NCBI RefSeq assembly: GCF_018350175.1 | Contig: NC_058368.1 | Location: forward strand, 116,932,001-116,996,000 | Source: Felis catus | Taxonomy: Eukaryota | Reading direction: 5' to 3' | DNA: 64,000 nt | Shown: positions 8,727-28,858 of the stretch, in pieces | How positions within the stretch are numbered: the first letter of the stretch is position 1 | How the letters are laid out: each line of letters begins with the position of its first letter | Program-made: the position numbers and the translations under genes | Notes under the pieces: generated by a model | Told to the model about the DNA's origin: nothing | Seen by the model: only the letters and a program-made list of their open reading frames with translations | Databases searched by the model: none

Positions 8727-8943
8727 GGGGCGCCTGGGTGGCGCAGTCGGTTAAGCATCCGACTTTGGCTCAGGTCATGATCTTGAGGTCCGTGAGTTCA
8801 AGCCCCATGTCCGGCTCTGTGCTCACTGCTCAGAGCCTGGAGCCTGTTTCCGATTCTGTGTCTCCCTCTCTCTCTGCCCCTCCCCCGTTCATGCTCTGTC
8901 TCTCTCTGTCCCAAAAAAAAACAAATAAACGTTGAAAAAAAAA
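8727..8943 (+). mobile_element. Young SINEC_Fc
   Basis: ggggcgcctgggtggcgcagtcggttaag...(CT) tract, poly-A; 16-bp TSD aagattagggtttaga at 8711-8726 and 8944-8959. Confidence 0.93.
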
Positions 8944-14203: not shown

Positions 14204-14228
14204 ACGCCTGGTGGCGCTGCAGGCTAGG
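14204..14228 (+). promoter_or_regulatory. CSE / CTCF site of PCDHB5
   Basis: acgcctggtggcgctgcaggctagg; CGCT at 14215, 254 nt upstream of the ATG. Confidence 0.88.
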
Positions 14229-14465
14229 AGTATGAATGAAAAGCTCTGTGACTATGCCGGACGCCATTAAGCTGGGACTCAGAATAATGAATGCTTCCTG
14301 AAAGACGGAAGTATTTTAGGTAAGATCTAGGGGCAGATGTCTTCAGAGAGGACATCATTCTAGGGCGAGTCAGTCAGAAAGATCTAATTCAAGGTTATTT
14401 AACCAAATCATCTGGGTCGACCGTATACAGAGGTGAAGAAACTGCACCACATGAATTTGGTCTGA

Positions 14466-16856
<2,391 letters not shown>

Positions 16857-17349
16857 GGATCTGATCACAATGCCGTGAGTTTTGTCATTTATCTCTAATT
16901 TCCCCAAATACCGAGTTTGAGAGCGTCATGGAGAAAAATCCCACCTTCAGGTATGATTTCCCTGAATTTATCCTTTTCAACTTTATCTTGCCCAATTTTG
17001 GGAAAACTGAATTCTCTGTCACTGCATCTATGTATACACAGTGCCATCCCAAACCTATGCATGCTATTGACTTTCCTAAAATGTTTGCTTTTGATGGTAT
17101 TTGTCAGGATAAGCTGTCTTAATGAAATCAAATACTGTTTTTCTCTGTATTCTGTCCATTCTGTTTCATCACACTGTTTTTGATGCTAAATAGCAAAAAT
17201 AAAAAGGTTTTACATAATTTTATTTTGTTTTCAAAGGAATACATGCAAATGATAATGAATGTACTATGTGAGAAAACTTGACAAAAAGCAACAACAATGT
17301 TCTAACTACTCTTCTTTCCTAGCTTTCATCCATACTGGCAAACATTTTT

Positions 17350-18000
17350 TAAACAATTTTTATTGAATTATGCATACAGAAAAGGCAACGAATCATAATT
17401 TCAATGTGTTTTCAGAAAGTTAACATACTTGGTACCAGCATCTTGGTGGTTAGTAATGAAACGTTGCTAACATTTCAGGTGCCACACAGATTACCCCTTA
17501 AAGTCACTACCAGCCCAAGTATAACAATATCCTGACTCCAATACTATGATTTACTTTTGCCTGTTTTGAATTTATATAATTGGAATAGTAGAGTATGAAC
17601 TGCTTTGTGTCTGGCTGATTTCAGTCAACATTATGTTTATGATATTTGTCCATGACAATGCTTTTAATTTTAGTTTTTCATTCTCATTGCTGTATAGTAT
17701 TCCACTGTATGAATATTTTACAATTTATGACCCATCCCACTATAGACGGATATTTGGGTTGGTGCACAGTTTGCCTGTTTGAATAGTACTACTTTGAACA
17801 TTCTCATACACGTCCTTTGGCAAACATGTATATGCATTTCTGTTGGTATATACCTAGGGGTGAAATTGCTGCTCATTTAGTAAGTACATGTTCCCTTTTT
17901 GTAGATTCTTCCAAATAGTTTCCAAAGTGGTTGTACCAGTTTACACTGCTCTCAGTACTGTCTGGATGTACCAGTTCCTCCATATTTTTGCCAACACTTT
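17350..18000 (-). mobile_element. Old L1 3' end fragment; boundaries approximate
   Basis: Reverse L1M-type 3' UTR motifs (ttcagtcaacattatgtttatgatatttgtccatg; ggatatttgggtt; atacctaggggtgaaattgctg). Confidence 0.7.
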
Positions 18001-19039
18001 CATTTTATCCCATTGGAAAGTACCTTTAAACCTTTTATCTGTAGTCCTTTTTATATTCTTTTTTTATTACTAAAGAGTATGTTTGTAACCTTTTCATAAA
18101 GTCTAAACAATTTCCTTAATTTCCTGCTACTGTTGTCTAGTACCTAGCACACTTAAAACTTCTCTCATTCATCCTTTACATAGAGCTCTGTCACTATTTT
18201 CCAGTACTTCCCTGAACAAGCTGAAACCCTCCATTTATTGTTCATAACAACAGTTCCTTTCATTTACTTGTCTGACAGAAAAAAAATACAATTCTTACTT
18301 TTTTCTCTTACTTCTTTCTCCCTTACACTTTACAACCTCTGTCAAATTAACTTACACTTTTATATAGTCCAGATTGATGACATTTTTACTCTATAACCAT
18401 AGCTAAGAATAGAATTCCCCCTTTGTCTATATATCTGTTGTAGAATCTGAAATCACTATTAAAAATTCACTTTTAATGACCATTATATTATGAATGCCCT
18501 GTAACCAAAGATCACAAGGACACACTGGATCAGAACAAAGCTGAGTTTATTGACTTGTTGTAACAAGGGAGACTGCACATTCTGGGAAAGCTTTGGTCAC
18601 CTTAGTAATAGCTCCTTAAAAAAGTATAAGGCTTGTGTTTGGTAGTTTTGCATAGGGCTCAAGGAAGTAGCCCTGGACTGGAAGCTTCCAGTGAATGGGA
18701 GTAATTCTATTATAGGGTATCTTATTGAATTTTATTCAGGAAATGAGAAGAACAAAGGGAGATTAAAATGTAATTGTTTTTTTAAAAACCAGCATTCAAT
18801 CATAATCAGCCAGGACAGAGTACTCTGGGCATTGTTTTGGTTTATACAATGTTCTTGTTTTTGACTGTGCTCAAGCATGATCATGATGTCATCTTATTGC
18901 AATTTTGTTCCATCTGATCACAATCCCTCTTTAATGATGTTGTTCTGTGAAGTTGTTTATATTCAACAGGAGATCATGGCCTATTTGTGAGTGCCACGCC
19001 AATTCCTATGTATAAGAGACTGATTTTCTCAAAGAATTC

Positions 19040-20140
19040 ATTGCACTATAAAATTCCTAGAAGAAAGCATAGGAGAAAAGCTTCATGACATTGAATTTGG
19101 TGGTGATTTCTTGGCTTTCACAACAAAACACATGGAACAAAGCGAAAATAGACCAATGAGACTACATCAAACTTAAAAAATTTTGTGCACCAAAGAACAC
19201 CATCAACAGTGAAAAGGCAACCTATGGAATGGGAGAAAATATTTGCAAATACTATATCTGATATGGGGTTAATGTCCATAATATTTAAGAACTCCTACAA
19301 CCCAACAATAACAAAAAAAATCAAATAACCTGATTAAAAAATGAGCAAAGGACTTAGATATTTCTCCAGAGATGATATGCAGATGACCAACAAACATATG
19401 AAAAAATCTTCAACATCACTAATCATCAGAGAAATGGAAATCCAAACCACAATGTAGTGTCACCCTACACACATTAGGATGACTGCTATCAAAAAAAAAA
19501 AAACACACAGAAAATAACAAGTGTTCAAAAGGATGTGGAGAAACTATCCCCTCCGTGCACTGTTGGTGAGATTGTAGAATGGTGCAACTGCTATAAAAAC
19601 AGTATGAAGTCTTCTCAAAAAAGTGTAAAAGAGAACTTCTATATGATCTGGCAATCCCATATCTGGGTATATACCTAAAGGAATTGAAAGCAGGGTCTCA
19701 AAGATACTTGTGCACCCATGTTCATAGCAGCAGTATTCACAACTGGCCAGAGGTGGAACCAACCCAAATACCCATGTATGGAATCTTAAAAAAGGAAGGG
19801 AAACCTATCACGTGCTACAACATGGATGAACTTTGAGGCCATTATTCTAAGTGAAAGAAGATAGTCACAAAAAGGCAAATACAGTATGATTCCACTTATA
19901 TGATGTATCCAAGTTTGTTAAATTCATACAAACAGAAAGTAGAATGGTGCCTACCAGGGACTGGGCAAGGAGGAAAAGGAGAGTTTTTGTTTGATGGGTA
20001 TAGAGTTTCAGATTTGCAAAATGGAAACGTTCTGGAGATCTGCTTCTCAACAATGTGAATGTACTTAACACTATGGAACTGTATACCTAAAAATGGTTAT
20101 GATGGTAAATTTTGTGTTACATTTTTTAACCGCAGTAAAA
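19040..20140 (+). mobile_element. L1MA/MB-type ORF2 end and 3' UTR
   Basis: aaaattcctagaagaaagcataggagaaaagcttcatgacattg ... gtacttaacactatggaactgtatacctaaaaatggttatgatggtaaatttt. Confidence 0.8.
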
Positions 20141-20270
20141 TACATTGCTCATTGCAGAGCCATATTACTTAAGGACTGTATTTTCTGCTCCTTTGATATA
20201 CTGTTGTGTTTCCTGTGCCATTGAAAATACAGTGTTCCTAGAATCAAGATAAAATAAATTCACCATTTTA

Positions 20271-20496
20271 TTTTATTTTACTTTACTTTAGGTTACTTTT
20301 TCTTTTTTAGAGAGAGAGCACACAAGTGGGGGACAGAGGCACAGGGAGAGAGAGGGAGAGGGGGGGTGGGAATCCCAAGCAGGCTCCATACTTAGCACAG
20401 AGCCTGATGTGGGACTTGATTCCACAACCCTGGGATCATGACCTGAACAGAAATCAAGAGTCAGATTTAGCCAACTGAGCCACCCAGGTGCTACAG
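20271..20496 (-). mobile_element. Can-SINE
   Basis: TSD attcaccatttta at 20258-20270 and 20497-20509. Confidence 0.87.
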
Positions 20497-21189
20497 ATTC
20501 ACCATTTTAGACTCCATCAGTTGGCTTTACCATATCTTCAAATATTTCTAAATAATTCAGGTTCCCATAACTCTTACCTGAAGCTCTCTTTCTGCTTCTG
20601 TCTGGAGTAAATGATCTCTAAATGTGTACAAAACTATCATCTTGTTTTTATACCTCTCCTAGTTAAGCCCATTGTTTGATAGATTACTTATCTCCTATTT
20701 TTAAAGCCCTCTCTGTGCTACAGTATATCCTCAAGTGGATTCCTAAGAGAGGGCACATGAAAAATAAACTCTGTCTCTGCATGTCTGAAAATGCATTTAG
20801 TTTTCTTTTACACTTCATTGATGTGCTATATAGTATATATGTCATGTAATGTCCTAAAAATTCTAAAAATTCCTGCCTTTTCATATCTGGGATCATTTCA
20901 TCTCTACTATTGTTTCCTTAATAACTGTATTCCTAACTTTATTTTTTTCTCAGCCTTGTGTTTTGTCAGTTATTGAACATTCTCAATAATATCTCTAGTT
21001 TCTTATATTTCTCCTTTATTTTACATCTTTGGTTTTTCCTCTCCATCCTCTTTTAAAGTGAGTCCCTCACTTTATTTTGAGCATTTCTGTTTCTTCCCCT
21101 AGGAGAAGTGTTGATATTTGTTGCTACAGGATGCAGGGATATCCTGGCAACTTCACAGCAGAAGAGTGACATGCTGAAAACAGGGGAAA

Positions 21190-23210
21190 ACCCTCATGAC
21201 GTCAAATCTGGTAATCCACACCAAATTTCTGAAAACTAAAGAGAAGGAAAAAATCTTGATGGCAGTGACAGTAGATTTCTCACCAAAAACCATGGGAGTC
21301 ANNNNNNNNNNNNNNNNNNNNNNNNNNNNNNNNNNNNNNNNNNNNNNNNNNNNNNNNNNNNNNNNNNNNNNNNNNNNNNNNNNNNNNNNNNNNNNNNNNN
21401 NNNNNNNNNNNNNNNNNNNNNNNNNNNNNNNNNNNNNNNCAAACAGAAAGGAATCAATTAAAAAAAGAATCTTGGAACATCAGGAAAGAAGAACACAGTA
21501 AATAAAAATATGGTTAAATGCCATAGACATTCCTTCTCCTCTTGAGTTTTCTAAATTATGTTTGATGGTTGAATCCCAAATTATATATGATTATGTCTGA
21601 TTAGTTCTAAGTATATATTGAGGAAATACTTAAGACAGCTTTAAATGGGGGAGGTTAAAGGGAGGTAAGTTTTCTACCCTTCTCTTGAACTGGTAAAATG
21701 ACATACCAGTAAACTGTAATAAGTTAAGTATGGAGCAACTACTATAAAAGCTATACAGTGTGATGCACCAAAAAATGCTATAGATAAATCAAAGTGGAAT
21801 TCTAAAAAAAGTGTCCTAATAAACTACAAGAAAAGCAGGAAAAAGAAAACAGAAACAAAAAACAGAACAAATATAAAAGAAAAAATAAAATGTCAGGCTT
21901 AGGCTCTAACATATCAGTAATTACATTTAATGTAAATGGTCTAACATATCAGTAATTACATTTAATGCAAATGGTCTGAACACACCAATCAAAACAAAGA
22001 GATTGATATAATGTGTTTAAAAATGACCAACTGTATGCTGTCTACAAGAAACTTCACTTCAAATATGATATAGGCAGGTTGAATGTAAAAAGATGGAAAA
22101 CATATTATGCAAATGTTGATAAAAATGTATTAGGAGTGGCCATACTAATGTCAGATAAAGTGACATCAGAGGAAAGAAAATGACCAGAGACAGAGTAGGA
22201 CATTAGGTAATGATAAAAGAAGACATAGCATTCCTAAATACGTATACATATTTACAAACAACAAAGGTACAAAATACGTGAAGCAAAAACTGACAAAACT
22301 GAAAGGAGAAATAGATCTACAATAAAAGTTGGATACTTCAATACAGAAAATCAGCAAGAACACAGAAGCGAACAACACCCTCAACAGGATGGATGTAATC
22401 CATATTTACAGAACACCTAGCCAAAAATACCAGAATACACATTCTTTTCAAATGCTTCCCAAAAATATGCAAAATAGACTGTGTAAACAAGGCCATACAC
22501 AAACTTCAATCCATTTAAAAGAATTGAAATCATACAGTGTGGGTTCTCCATTCACAATAGAATCAAACTAAAAAACATAAAGTAACAGGAAAATCTTCAA
22601 ATGCTTGAAAACGAAACATTTCTAATTAATCCATGGATCAAAGGCAAAGTCTCAAGGAATATAAAAAATACATCAAGCTGAACTAAAAATGAAAAGACAA
22701 CAAATTAAAATTTATAAGACACAGCTAAAGCAGTGCAGAGGGACATTTATAGCACTAAATGCATATTAGAAAAGAGGAAAGGGCGCCTGGGTGGCTCACT
22801 AGGTTAAGCATCTTGACTCTTGATTTCAGTTCAGATCATGATGTCACAGTTCGTTGAGTTCCAGCCCTGCGTGGGACTCATCACTGATGGCGTGGAGCCT
22901 GTCTGGGATTCTTTTTCTCTCCTTCTCTTTCTGCCCTGCCTCTGTGCACATGTGATGTTTCTCTCTCTCTCTCAAACTTAAAAAAAATTTTTAAAGAAAA
23001 GAGGAAAAGTCCCAATCATCTAATCTCCCACCTCCAGAATCTAGAAAAATAAGAGAAAAATAACCCAAAGCAAGCAGGAGAAGCAGGAGGAAGGAAATAG
23101 TGTAAATAATAGAAGAAACCAATTAAATTCCAAATAAAAATAATAGAGAAAACCAATGAAATAAAAAGTTGATTCTTTGAAAAAATAAAACTGACAGACA
23201 TCTAACAAGG
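21190..23210 (+). mobile_element. Decayed L1 (ORF1 end to ORF2 endonuclease region); contains N run 21302-21439 and a 35-nt tandem duplication at 21905-21974
   Basis: atatcagtaattacatttaatgtaaatggtct ... tatgctgtctacaagaaacttcacttcaaatat ... are L1 endonuclease-region motifs. Confidence 0.75.
22781..22994 (+). mobile_element. Can-SINE inserted in L1
   Basis: TSD agaaaagaggaaa at 22768-22780 and 22995-23007. Confidence 0.88.
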
Positions 23211-24402
23211 AAGTCTTCCCCAAACATTTGAGATTTCAAATGTGTTTAGCATCAATTCCTTTATATTTTCAGACTTTTATGCATCATTTCTTTCTCCCAT
23301 CAATTGAGAGCGTTAAGTGATTGCTTACATATCTGCATCTTTGCCCTGAGTCATTGTTTTTCCTTGCATATAGTTAAATGAGATTTTAAGAGATTTATAA
23401 CAAAATTAAAGAGTTCTAAGATGAACCATGAGGGTTAGTCTTTATCTTTCATTTTTAGTAAACTTGAAGAATTTTTAAAATGTATAATGGAATGAAAGGA
23501 AAACAAACATTTGTAGCATAAAAATGGAAATCAGCTTGATCAGCTATGCAATAATTATAAGCTAACTAAATAAAATTAAGTTTAATATACTTTATAATGT
23601 TTCATCAAAGTATTATTTCAGCTCTTTGATAATAATCAGTTAATCTTAATGATCTGTCACTTCACATAAGCATACACGAACATAATAAGTATTGGCATGA
23701 GTATTGGAAATGGTGTTTTTTTACATTATTTACCTTTACATGTTGTGTCTAGAGGAAGCCAAGCTTTTGCCACCTAATTATTAAAATTAAGCTGGAATAT
23801 GAGTAAGAAGGTTCCCAATGAATGAAGGAAACGTTCTATATCTTGAAAGAGGTGTGGGTTACATGGATGGATCCATTGTTAAAATGGCACAGTTAAGATT
23901 GGTGCATTTCAATTTGGGTAAATGTTACCTTAAAACAACTATACAAAAATAAACATTGACTGGGAGGCGGAGGGTGGAGGGAAAGATATAGATGAAGCAA
24001 GACAAGATGTTTTGAAGCTGGGTGATGTGTACATGGAAGTTATGCTGTTTGCTTTGTATGTACTGAACTTGTTCCACAATAAATGCTAATGAGTTATTAC
24101 TTGTGAGACAAGTTGATAAATGTCAATTCAATTCTACTCTAGCAAAGCAAAACAAAAGAGAGTAAAGCAGAGACGCATTCTCCTGAAAGAATCTAAAGTA
24201 ATCCATTTCCATAAAAAGGCAGTTTCTTCACATACCAACTGACACCCTTGAAGGATACATTAAGATATTCTGTTCTTCTTTCTATAATAAAAAGCAATGT
24301 TCTCCAAGATATTTCAGTGATCTAAACTGAGTTCTACAAATGCTGTACTGCTAGTAAAATTTGCTTTAAAATGAATAATTATTCAGTAAGCTATCTGTGA
24401 AG

Positions 24403-24555
24403 ATGTGTGGTGGCGCTGCAGGTCAAGAGAGTAAATAAAGGATTGCACAGATGTCAGGGATGCCATTAAGCTGGAATCAGAATATCCACTGAAGGAAGGG
24501 AATCTTTAGGGTTGGGCTAGAAATAGCTCTGTTTCAAAGAAGAAACTACACCCAT
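24403..24555 (+). promoter_or_regulatory. Orphan PCDHB promoter relic with intact CSE core and no downstream exon
   Basis: tggtggcgctgcagg at 24408-24422, followed by ggatgccattaagctggaatcagaat and gaagaaactacacccat, which match segments of the PCDHB5 5' region. No cadherin-coding sequence follows. Confidence 0.8.
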
Positions 24556-24712
24556 CTAATGTGTTTATGGTTGTTGGTTTTATTTCATCAGTTTACTTTG
24601 TCATTCATACCCTCAAGGAAATCTATTCTCAGTAACATTTATCAAGTGAACCATAGAGACTGGTCACCATGATCTTATTTTTTTATCCTTCTGGATAGAT
24701 AGAGTGCTTTTT

Positions 24713-24924
24713 TTTTTTCAACGTTTTTTATTTATTTTTGGGACAGAGAGAGACAGAGCATGAATGGAGGAGGGGCAGAGAGAGAGGGAGACACAGAATC
24801 GGAAGCAGGCTCCAGGCTCCGAGCCATCAGCCCAGAGCCCGACGCGGGGCTCGAACTCATGGACCGCGAGATCGTGACCTGCCTGAAGTCGGACGCTTAA
24901 CCGACTGCGCCACCCAGGCGCCCC
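24713..24924 (-). mobile_element. Young SINEC_Fc
   Basis: TSD tagagtgcttttt at 24700-24712 and 24925-24937; near-consensus body. Confidence 0.93.
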
Positions 24925-25921
24925 TAGAGTGCTTTTTAAGTACAAAATTATTTCATATGGTCAGAGTTTAGATTTTATTTAGCTTTACTTATTTTACCTA
25001 GAGTTGAAACATTTTGAAAAAGATCCTCAGTTTTAATCTTTCATCATTTTGGCTCTTACCTGAAGTGAAGTTTGGTTGAACTCAGTTGATTTAATCTCTC
25101 AATATGTATGAAATCAATCTGAAATGAAATTATGCTTGGCGCATTTTGTGTTGTTATATGTGCACTGACCCAGTTCATGTATTTTCAGGATGTTTAAAGA
25201 CATGTTTTCCTATTAATCTGAACAGAAACTGAGGAGATAGAAATGGATAAAGCCATGATGAACCATCAGTGAATTCTGTGGAATCCACTCAAGTGTAATT
25301 CACCTTTCACATTACCTTATTTGATGTTGATTTATAGAAACTCATGTCATCTTTGTTGTGGGAGGGTTGGTAGAGGTGAATGTTTATTTTCTGCATTGCA
25401 TTATGTCCTTACAACAGGATAATATATTTGGGCCTCGATTAATTACTATAGGAGTTAAATTTGATTTAAAAATTACAATAATATAAACAATCCTAATAAA
25501 AATCATGACTAATTCTACCTGTACAAAATGAAGTAAAATCCCAAGATGTGTACTCATGACAGACTATTGATTGTTGCTAGTTCCTCTTTTAAATAATTGA
25601 ATTGATTAGGTACTTCTATCTTAAGTATTTCTTGGCCTCAGTTTTCCTTCTAATAGCCTAATTCTTTCCTTTATTTTGCAGGTATAAGCACAAAATAAAG
25701 TAGGTCTGTTGTTTATGTCATTTTATGAGCCATATAACTTAGAGAAATAGTTTTTTATCTTATAATTGGTGTTGCTAACCAACATTTACATTTTGTAGTT
25801 TATTGATTTGTTTGTTGGGACAAATAATGTACATTTTGAATTCACAAATCACACTATTCGTCAGAGATAAATTTCATTGCCAAAGAATACAAGATGATTA
25901 TAGTAAATTTACATTATTTGG

Positions 25922-26122
25922 GGTAGTGATTTCTAAACGTTAGTATGCATGAGAATCACTTAAAGACAAAGATTGAAGTTCAGATTTCAGTTAGCACCCC
26001 CAGAGAATTTGATTGAAGATCTAGAGGGAAGACCAGGAGTTGACTTTGAAAAAAAAAACAACCCAAGACTCCCAAGTAATTATTTATGCATATGGTTCAC
26101 ACACTATGGTTTGAGAAACACG
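25922..26122. mobile_element. MER5A-like hAT-Charlie MITE just upstream of the PCDHB6 CSE
   Basis: Decayed termini tagtgatttctaaac ... tttgagaaacacgg and internal tgcatgagaatcac. Confidence 0.65.
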
Positions 26123-26205
26123 GACTCCATCTCAAAGTCTTTATAACGCTCAGATTTGGGGAATATTATTGCCTGTATGTTATCATATTGAAGTTATCAA
26201 TTTGA

Positions 26206-26230
26206 ACGCGTGGTGGCAGTGCAGGCTAAG
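26206..26230 (+). promoter_or_regulatory. Variant CSE of PCDHB6 (CAGT replaces the CGCT box)
   Basis: acgcgtggtggcagtgcaggctaag; 257 nt upstream of the ATG, same flanks as the paralogous CSEs. Confidence 0.82.
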
Positions 26231-26410
26231 AGAGTGAATAAAGCTCTGCAGATTCGGTGGACTCCATTTTATTCAGAGACCCCCTCTCCCCTCAAATACA
26301 GGACACATTTACAGCTAGAGCAAAGTTAGAAGTATTCAGGAAGGCAGTCGTCACCAGAGAAGTTATAAGACAAATTCGAAATTCAACAGCAAAGAGATTA
26401 CGGAGGGTAG

Positions 26411-28858
<2,448 letters not shown>

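Follow-up and report, generated by a model that had tools for sequence, protein, structure and literature searches.

Between PCDHB5 and the gene that follows it, a sequence-only reading of this DNA had noticed a CSE core with no protocadherin exon behind it. This raises the question of whether the site is the promoter of a vanished gene and, if it is, whether what remains of that promoter may still act on the genes around it. The window (the whole stretch of DNA that was analysed, 64 kb of a 2.43-Gb genome) holds eight single-exon protocadherin-beta genes, all on the + strand, and we widened the area scanned to the window plus 80 kb upstream and 120 kb downstream, in which the beta cluster comprises 16 long open frames. 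A protein search names the gene at 14469 as PCDHB5 (94% to hyaena protocadherin beta-5); the 120 matches listed were mostly orthologues and allow no view of a lost sister clade. The other PCDHB names follow the sequence-only reading, by which the next gene after the relic is PCDHB6, or the order of genes in the cluster. A CSE is present in 15 of the 16 frames, which agrees with the published rule that every beta gene except the first carries one (PMC7811963). These 15 beta promoters served as the living reference set and were scored leave-one-out.

A promoter and leader without an exon

The core, TGGTGGCGCTGCAGG, stands on the + strand at 24408-24422, just where it had been described. It had also been described as standing upstream of seven of the eight genes in the window; this is true of a 14-mer of the core, whereas the exact 15-mer precedes only four of the eight. 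The 14-mer has 40 exact matches genome-wide, 11 of them in the cluster (10 gene promoters and the relic site), and by our own arithmetic the remaining 29 correspond to an expectation of about 1e-4 in the 9.3-kb interval between PCDHB5 and the next gene. Nothing around a second ATTAAGCTGG, at 23786, resembles a CSE, and we took this copy to be chance.

The homology of the relic extends approximately 110 nt beyond the core. A profile built from four neighbouring promoters matches 24389-24553 on the + strand (nhmmer, E=9.8e-14), and this stretch is firmly homologous to the promoter and proximal leader of a PCDHB4/5/6-like paralogue; the best pairwise match is PCDHB5, whose CSE, leader and start codon (14204-14469, + strand) are the closest living counterpart of the relic. 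When the core is omitted, 24423-24530 still matches the PCDHB5 leader with p=0.003 (300 shuffles each, six leaders compared), the leader of the next gene with p=0.010 and that of the previous gene with p=0.017. Over the longer stretch 24423-24704 the comparison with PCDHB5 gives z=4.5, yet the top score of the 300 shuffles is higher. The upstream flank of the relic shows no homology to eight paralogues (z at most 1.2). Chance resemblance to a CSE might be thought of, given the 29 exact 14-mers elsewhere in the genome and the SINE heads that give weak CSE-like scores of up to 22, but the small number expected in the interval speaks against it and the homology of the flank already refutes it, and we attach practically no probability to it. 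Judged by this homology, the relic between PCDHB5 and the next gene is a true paralogous PCDHB promoter and leader, and the earlier proposal that the gene to which it belonged has vanished is supported.

Where the leader ends is less clear-cut. The alignment past about 24530 is uncertain, and the homologous leader appears to end at about 24530-24553; taken by itself, 24531-24704 matches none of six leaders significantly (p 0.2-1.0). An all-paralogue profile reaches 24663, and 24554-24663 (+ strand) is tentatively a leader remainder with a dead start codon, the ATA at 24653, which lies 245 nt from the core and falls on the start-codon column of the profile. The PCDHB5 start context and the relic match here in 13 of 16 positions; depending on which of three window sizes is used, 0, 1 or 3 of 103 control windows do as well. 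The collinear leader alignment scores 289.5, against 238-257 for a register with a leader deletion of approximately 95 nt. The second leader match proposed in the sequence-only reading, at 24539-24555 (13 of 18), turns out to be weak, in that one of 44 control windows equals it and the register that it implies, the one with the leader deletion, scores below the collinear one.

Behind the relic, the reported absence of cadherin coding sequence is confirmed. A tblastn search with the eight window proteins against 16900-26400, to E=10, returned no cadherin coding match (one masked stretch excluded), and coding-DNA profiles gave no match behind the relic either; 24937-26150, compared with 15 paralogue 3' flanks, gives nothing beyond marginal scores above shuffles. 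The SINE that had been reported behind the relic is also present, on the minus strand, with its body at about 24713-24924 (84-92% identity to the closest copies within the window) and a target-site duplication of 13 nt, at 24700-24712 and 24925-24937, so that the feature as a whole occupies 24700-24937. Because both target-site copies are kept, the SINE is a later insertion into existing DNA and not a deletion junction. The 5' ends of the young SINE family are the strongest non-promoter matches to the CSE profile in the window, with heads such as those at 8736, 24906 (minus), 46267 (minus) and 53746 scoring 17-19, and such copies might serve as a source of weak CTCF-like sites facing either way.

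An exon may be missing for another reason, namely that the promoter and leader were duplicated alone, by partial duplication or unequal crossover, and that the copy never had one. The complete lack of coding DNA and the fading of homology at or before the start codon would both be expected from such an event, but four living neighbours are at approximately the same distance from the relic (0.65-0.78) and none of them has an upstream flank in common with it (again z at most 1.2), both of which fit an old independent paralogue, and all five of the other relics in the cluster contain coding DNA. We therefore hold this origin to be quite improbable.

The CTCF core and its CpG context

The CTCF core is approximately 14-15 nt long, CCNNNAGGGGGCGC, and is contacted by fingers 7 to 3 (PMC10287918, PMC10484683). 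The frame of the core was taken from these two papers, and we inferred its placement on the CSE ourselves. So mapped, the core starts at 24403, five bases ahead of the 15-mer of the sequence-only reading, which covers just the 3' part of the CTCF motif. In the relic this degenerate CSE (24403-24417, + strand) reads ATG TGT GGT GGC GCT, against ACG CCT GGT GGC GCT in PCDHB5. The relic has T at core position 2 (24404) and at core position 4 (24406), and all 15 living beta promoters carry C at both, while the CGCT box (24414-24417) retains its CpG at 24414-24415. The beta-cluster-specific tail of the CSE (GCAGG..AAGAGAG; 24418-24445, + strand) carries a T>C change at 24424, in a column that is likewise invariant in 15 of 15 living promoters. 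The relic thus breaks three of the 11 invariant CSE columns, two of them by CpG-type C>T changes, whereas living promoters scored leave-one-out break none (11 of 15) or one (4 of 15), and the core cannot be called unmutated, as it had been.

The size of this contrast depends on which columns are hit, since on a looser set of 19 columns, where the relic differs at three, two living promoters differ at three and four and so equal or exceed it. The score of the whole CSE profile is 30.3, inside the living leave-one-out range of 27.5-46.2; the score of the 5' half is -0.8, against 2.8-10.5 in the living promoters, and that of the 3' half is full. A CTCF matrix that is approximate and indicative only gives the relic -8.4 bits against 5.5-13.2 for the living promoters. 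The upstream CTCF motif, in register, reaches 2-3 of 6 in the relic and 6 of 6 in PCDHB5, but since 10 of the 15 living promoters also stand at 3 of 6 or less, the missing motif does not discriminate. Both of the 5' changes read TG, which is the product of methyl-CpG decay, and the living promoters have CG at core position 2 in 11 of 15 cases and at core position 4 in 3 of 15, including the next gene. Core position 2, which is read by finger 7, is the sole CpG position whose methylation significantly alters binding energy, and a lone C>T at this position results in vitro in a core of intermediate strength, not in a dead one (PMC10287918).

Over 361 nt the relic holds a single CpG; the 15 living promoters have 3-14 (median 10), and 20 intergenic windows average 1.4. 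This loss suggests long germ-line methylation. The sole CpG left in 24300-24704 is that of the CGCT box, and methylation of this box blocks CTCF (PMC7811963). That the last CpG should be this one is, given roughly ten ancestral CpGs and by a rough estimate, a coincidence of about 1 in 10; the survival of an intact 15-mer under neutral change of 10-16% per site has a probability of 0.08-0.2, lower when the CpG is taken into account, for a stretch that was picked post hoc. The surviving CGCT CpG and the intact 15-mer are the best evidence for residual function, and this evidence is mild and post hoc.

That the core was kept while its flanks decayed, as the sequence-only reading had described it, is not borne out by the flanks. 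Compared over +15 to +145, the relic has an identity of 0.70 with PCDHB5 and of 0.65-0.78 with three further neighbours, and the same flank among those living genes gives 0.63-0.70, with 0.70 between PCDHB5 and another living paralogue; the divergence of the relic flanks from PCDHB5 does not exceed that seen among living paralogues. In the array, the leaders of paralogues drift apart and their CSEs remain similar, so the contrast between core and flank is the normal state of any member and is uninformative on selection after the loss of the gene.

On these comparisons, the relic is a CSE by descent, with homology and a CGCT box, forward orientation and a paralogous leader, from which three traits of a functioning promoter CSE that we examined are missing: the intact 5' cytosines of the CTCF core (positions 2 and 4), the CpG-rich promoter context, which is here at background level, and the start codon of a variable exon approximately 250 nt downstream, where a tentative dead one stands at +245.

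Possible activities of the relic

A promoter that has lost its gene may nevertheless serve as a CTCF anchor in forward orientation. Such an anchor would be weakened but in use, would contribute to loop extrusion and would alter which promoters of the beta array are used. Core positions 6-15 are intact, the CGCT CpG included, and the orientation is the same as that of the gene promoters; in addition, inserted CTCF sites insulate and shift Pcdh promoter usage (PMC7087399, 10.1101/525543), and single core-2 variants still bind in vitro (PMC10287918). However, two 5' cytosines that all 15 living promoters share are gone, the CpG content is at background and a methylated CGCT box blocks CTCF (PMC7811963), and the divergence of the flank is not above that of living paralogues. 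The sequence evidence points away from a CTCF-bound relic, and we consider it unlikely that such an anchor is in use here. We are similarly doubtful that the site forms a natural "empty slot" that absorbs enhancer contacts and tunes the choice of neighbouring isoforms, and the decoy role that had been put forward earlier likewise appears unlikely from the sequence. If such an anchor did exist, then the promoters of dead genes, both this relic and a CpG-rich one upstream of the window, would be regulatory parts and not junk. If the relic were bound by CTCF, it would provide a natural test of the model in which tandem CTCF sites balance promoter usage, a model so far tested by engineered insertions and deletions.

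The relic may also be viewed as an alternative upstream promoter of the next gene, as had been suggested, or as the driver of a non-coding RNA. Its promoter-like leader lies 1.8 kb upstream of the next CSE, and one strong-looking acceptor is found at 25681, but 24430-24704 contains no donor of at least 5/7, and two polyadenylation hexamers and 40 ATGs stand ahead of the start of the next gene. Moreover, alpha genes need a CSE together with a gene-specific upstream element, the CSE being necessary and not sufficient (PMC3333863). The CSE of the next gene (26206-26220, + strand) reads ACG CGT GGT GGC AGT; it has GGCAGT and no CGCT box, but it retains its 5' half, with both 5' cytosines kept and 5/6 of the upstream motif, and nothing therefore suggests that this gene needs a spare promoter. 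The suggestion thus appears unlikely from the sequence, and we assign a very low probability to either kind of transcriptional role.

Two living beta promoters are without a CGCT box, the one at 26206-26220 (GGC AGT) and another at L009:798-812 (GGC ACT); both have no CpG at the position of the CTCF-blocking methylation and keep the core-2 CpG. The frame of the next gene opens at an in-frame ATG at 26411, 63 nt upstream of the ATG at 26474, and it is the latter that fits the usual CSE spacing (263 nt).

RNA data came from two raw runs of unstated tissue, sampled at about 2 and 1 in 100 of their reads, and from two contig sets on 24100-26400. In the two runs the depth is 0 over 24408-24638 and likewise 0 over the promoter and leader of the next gene, which leaves the comparison with no positive control. 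RNA on 24100-26400 consists of SINE cross-mapping and scattered traces, with no joint outside the SINE among those shown, again without a positive control. A contig piece of depth 2 covers 24384-24534, and since equal pieces lie on plain intergenic DNA, we read it as DNA background. At 24443 one low-depth contig piece has C for T, possibly an allele. Two pattern scans of metagenomes for related DNA gave 0 matches.

Relics of the cluster and known systems

When the 16 intervals that separate the first beta gene from the first gamma gene were scanned with profiles, five further dead-gene relics came to light, all of which keep coding fragments. Two are in the interval that follows the first beta gene, one lies just ahead of the window and two stand before the gamma cluster. 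In the interval of the first two beta genes, upstream of the window, a dead PCDHB gene occupies L007:5749-7162 (about 116907750-116909160 of G000:C1). Its coding DNA is badly decayed, its promoter has 15 CpGs in 361 nt, and its CSE is near-intact (ACG CCT GGT GGT GCT), with changes only at the C of the CGCT box and at one base of the tail. The same interval contains a second dead PCDHB gene, from L007:8612 to L008:522, whose CSE is degenerate and whose promoter is CpG-free. The fragmentary PCDHB relic at L009:5316-8636, just upstream of the first gene of the window, comprises three coding-like pieces and no CSE that scores above 12, and two cadherin-like fragments, L017:3139-3328 and L018:9973 to L019:495, are situated between the last beta and the first gamma gene. 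A CpG-rich promoter with a near-intact CSE, as in L007:5749-7162, is what a preserved gene-less promoter is expected to look like, and the relic at 24403 is unlike that; by its sequence, the promoter at L007:5775 would be the better candidate for a gene-less promoter that was retained, or for a CTCF anchor or decoy.

The most probable reading of the relic at 24403 is that a deletion long ago took away the exon of an old PCDHB4/5/6-like paralogue and left its promoter and leader behind, which are now methylated, decaying and likely inert. A unit of the PCDHB4/5/6 type would have been made by the tandem duplication of the array, and a deletion would subsequently have taken its exon, which is absent here while the other relics in the cluster retain coding DNA. 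Because these five keep coding fragments, full erosion of 2.4 kb seems unlikely, and deletion would be the simpler account. Once deprived of the CpG-rich exon, the promoter may have become methylated in the germ line, and CpG decay would have turned an ACGCG-like sequence into ATGTG, at the cost of the cytosine contacted by CTCF finger 7; the 3' half would appear intact because it was under selection during most of its history and is short. The motif changes and the loss of CpG are observations, and it is their cause that we infer. Binding of CTCF at the relic is predicted to be weak or absent, and no regular transcription start is predicted. This account of a deleted exon is weakened in that the deletion junction is unlocated and no species with an intact gene has been seen. 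If it is right, CpG loss damages a decaying CSE in its finger-7 half, and the CGCT half, which remains visible, can persist and mislead the matching of short cores. Our literature search, outside of which lay key comparative and structural works, found no report of a CSE that lacks a gene in the PCDHB5-PCDHB6 interval.

Engineered extra CTCF sites (PMC7087399) resemble the relic in being gene-less CTCF motifs within the array that affect promoter balance if bound, but those sites are strong, with binding shown by ChIP-seq, whereas the relic is degenerate and at most a putative binding site. With the CSE of clustered protocadherins (PMC7811963, PMC3333863, PMC7087399) the relic shares homology, forward orientation, the CGCT box, the beta-type tail and a paralogous leader, and it differs in having no variable exon, in the loss of two invariant 5' cytosines and one tail base, and in a CpG content that is intergenic. 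As the probable remnant of a deleted gene, it would be one more unit that the PCDHB array has lost in its history. Pseudogene or relic variable exons were reportedly described in mammalian Pcdh clusters by Wu et al. in 2001. The relic has the features of such remnants, in that it is a paralogous, non-coding remnant within the array, with no open frame and with change of a neutral type, and like them it is what is left of a lost unit of the tandem array. It differs from them in what has been preserved, which here is only the promoter and the leader, whereas the other relics retain fragments of their coding DNA.
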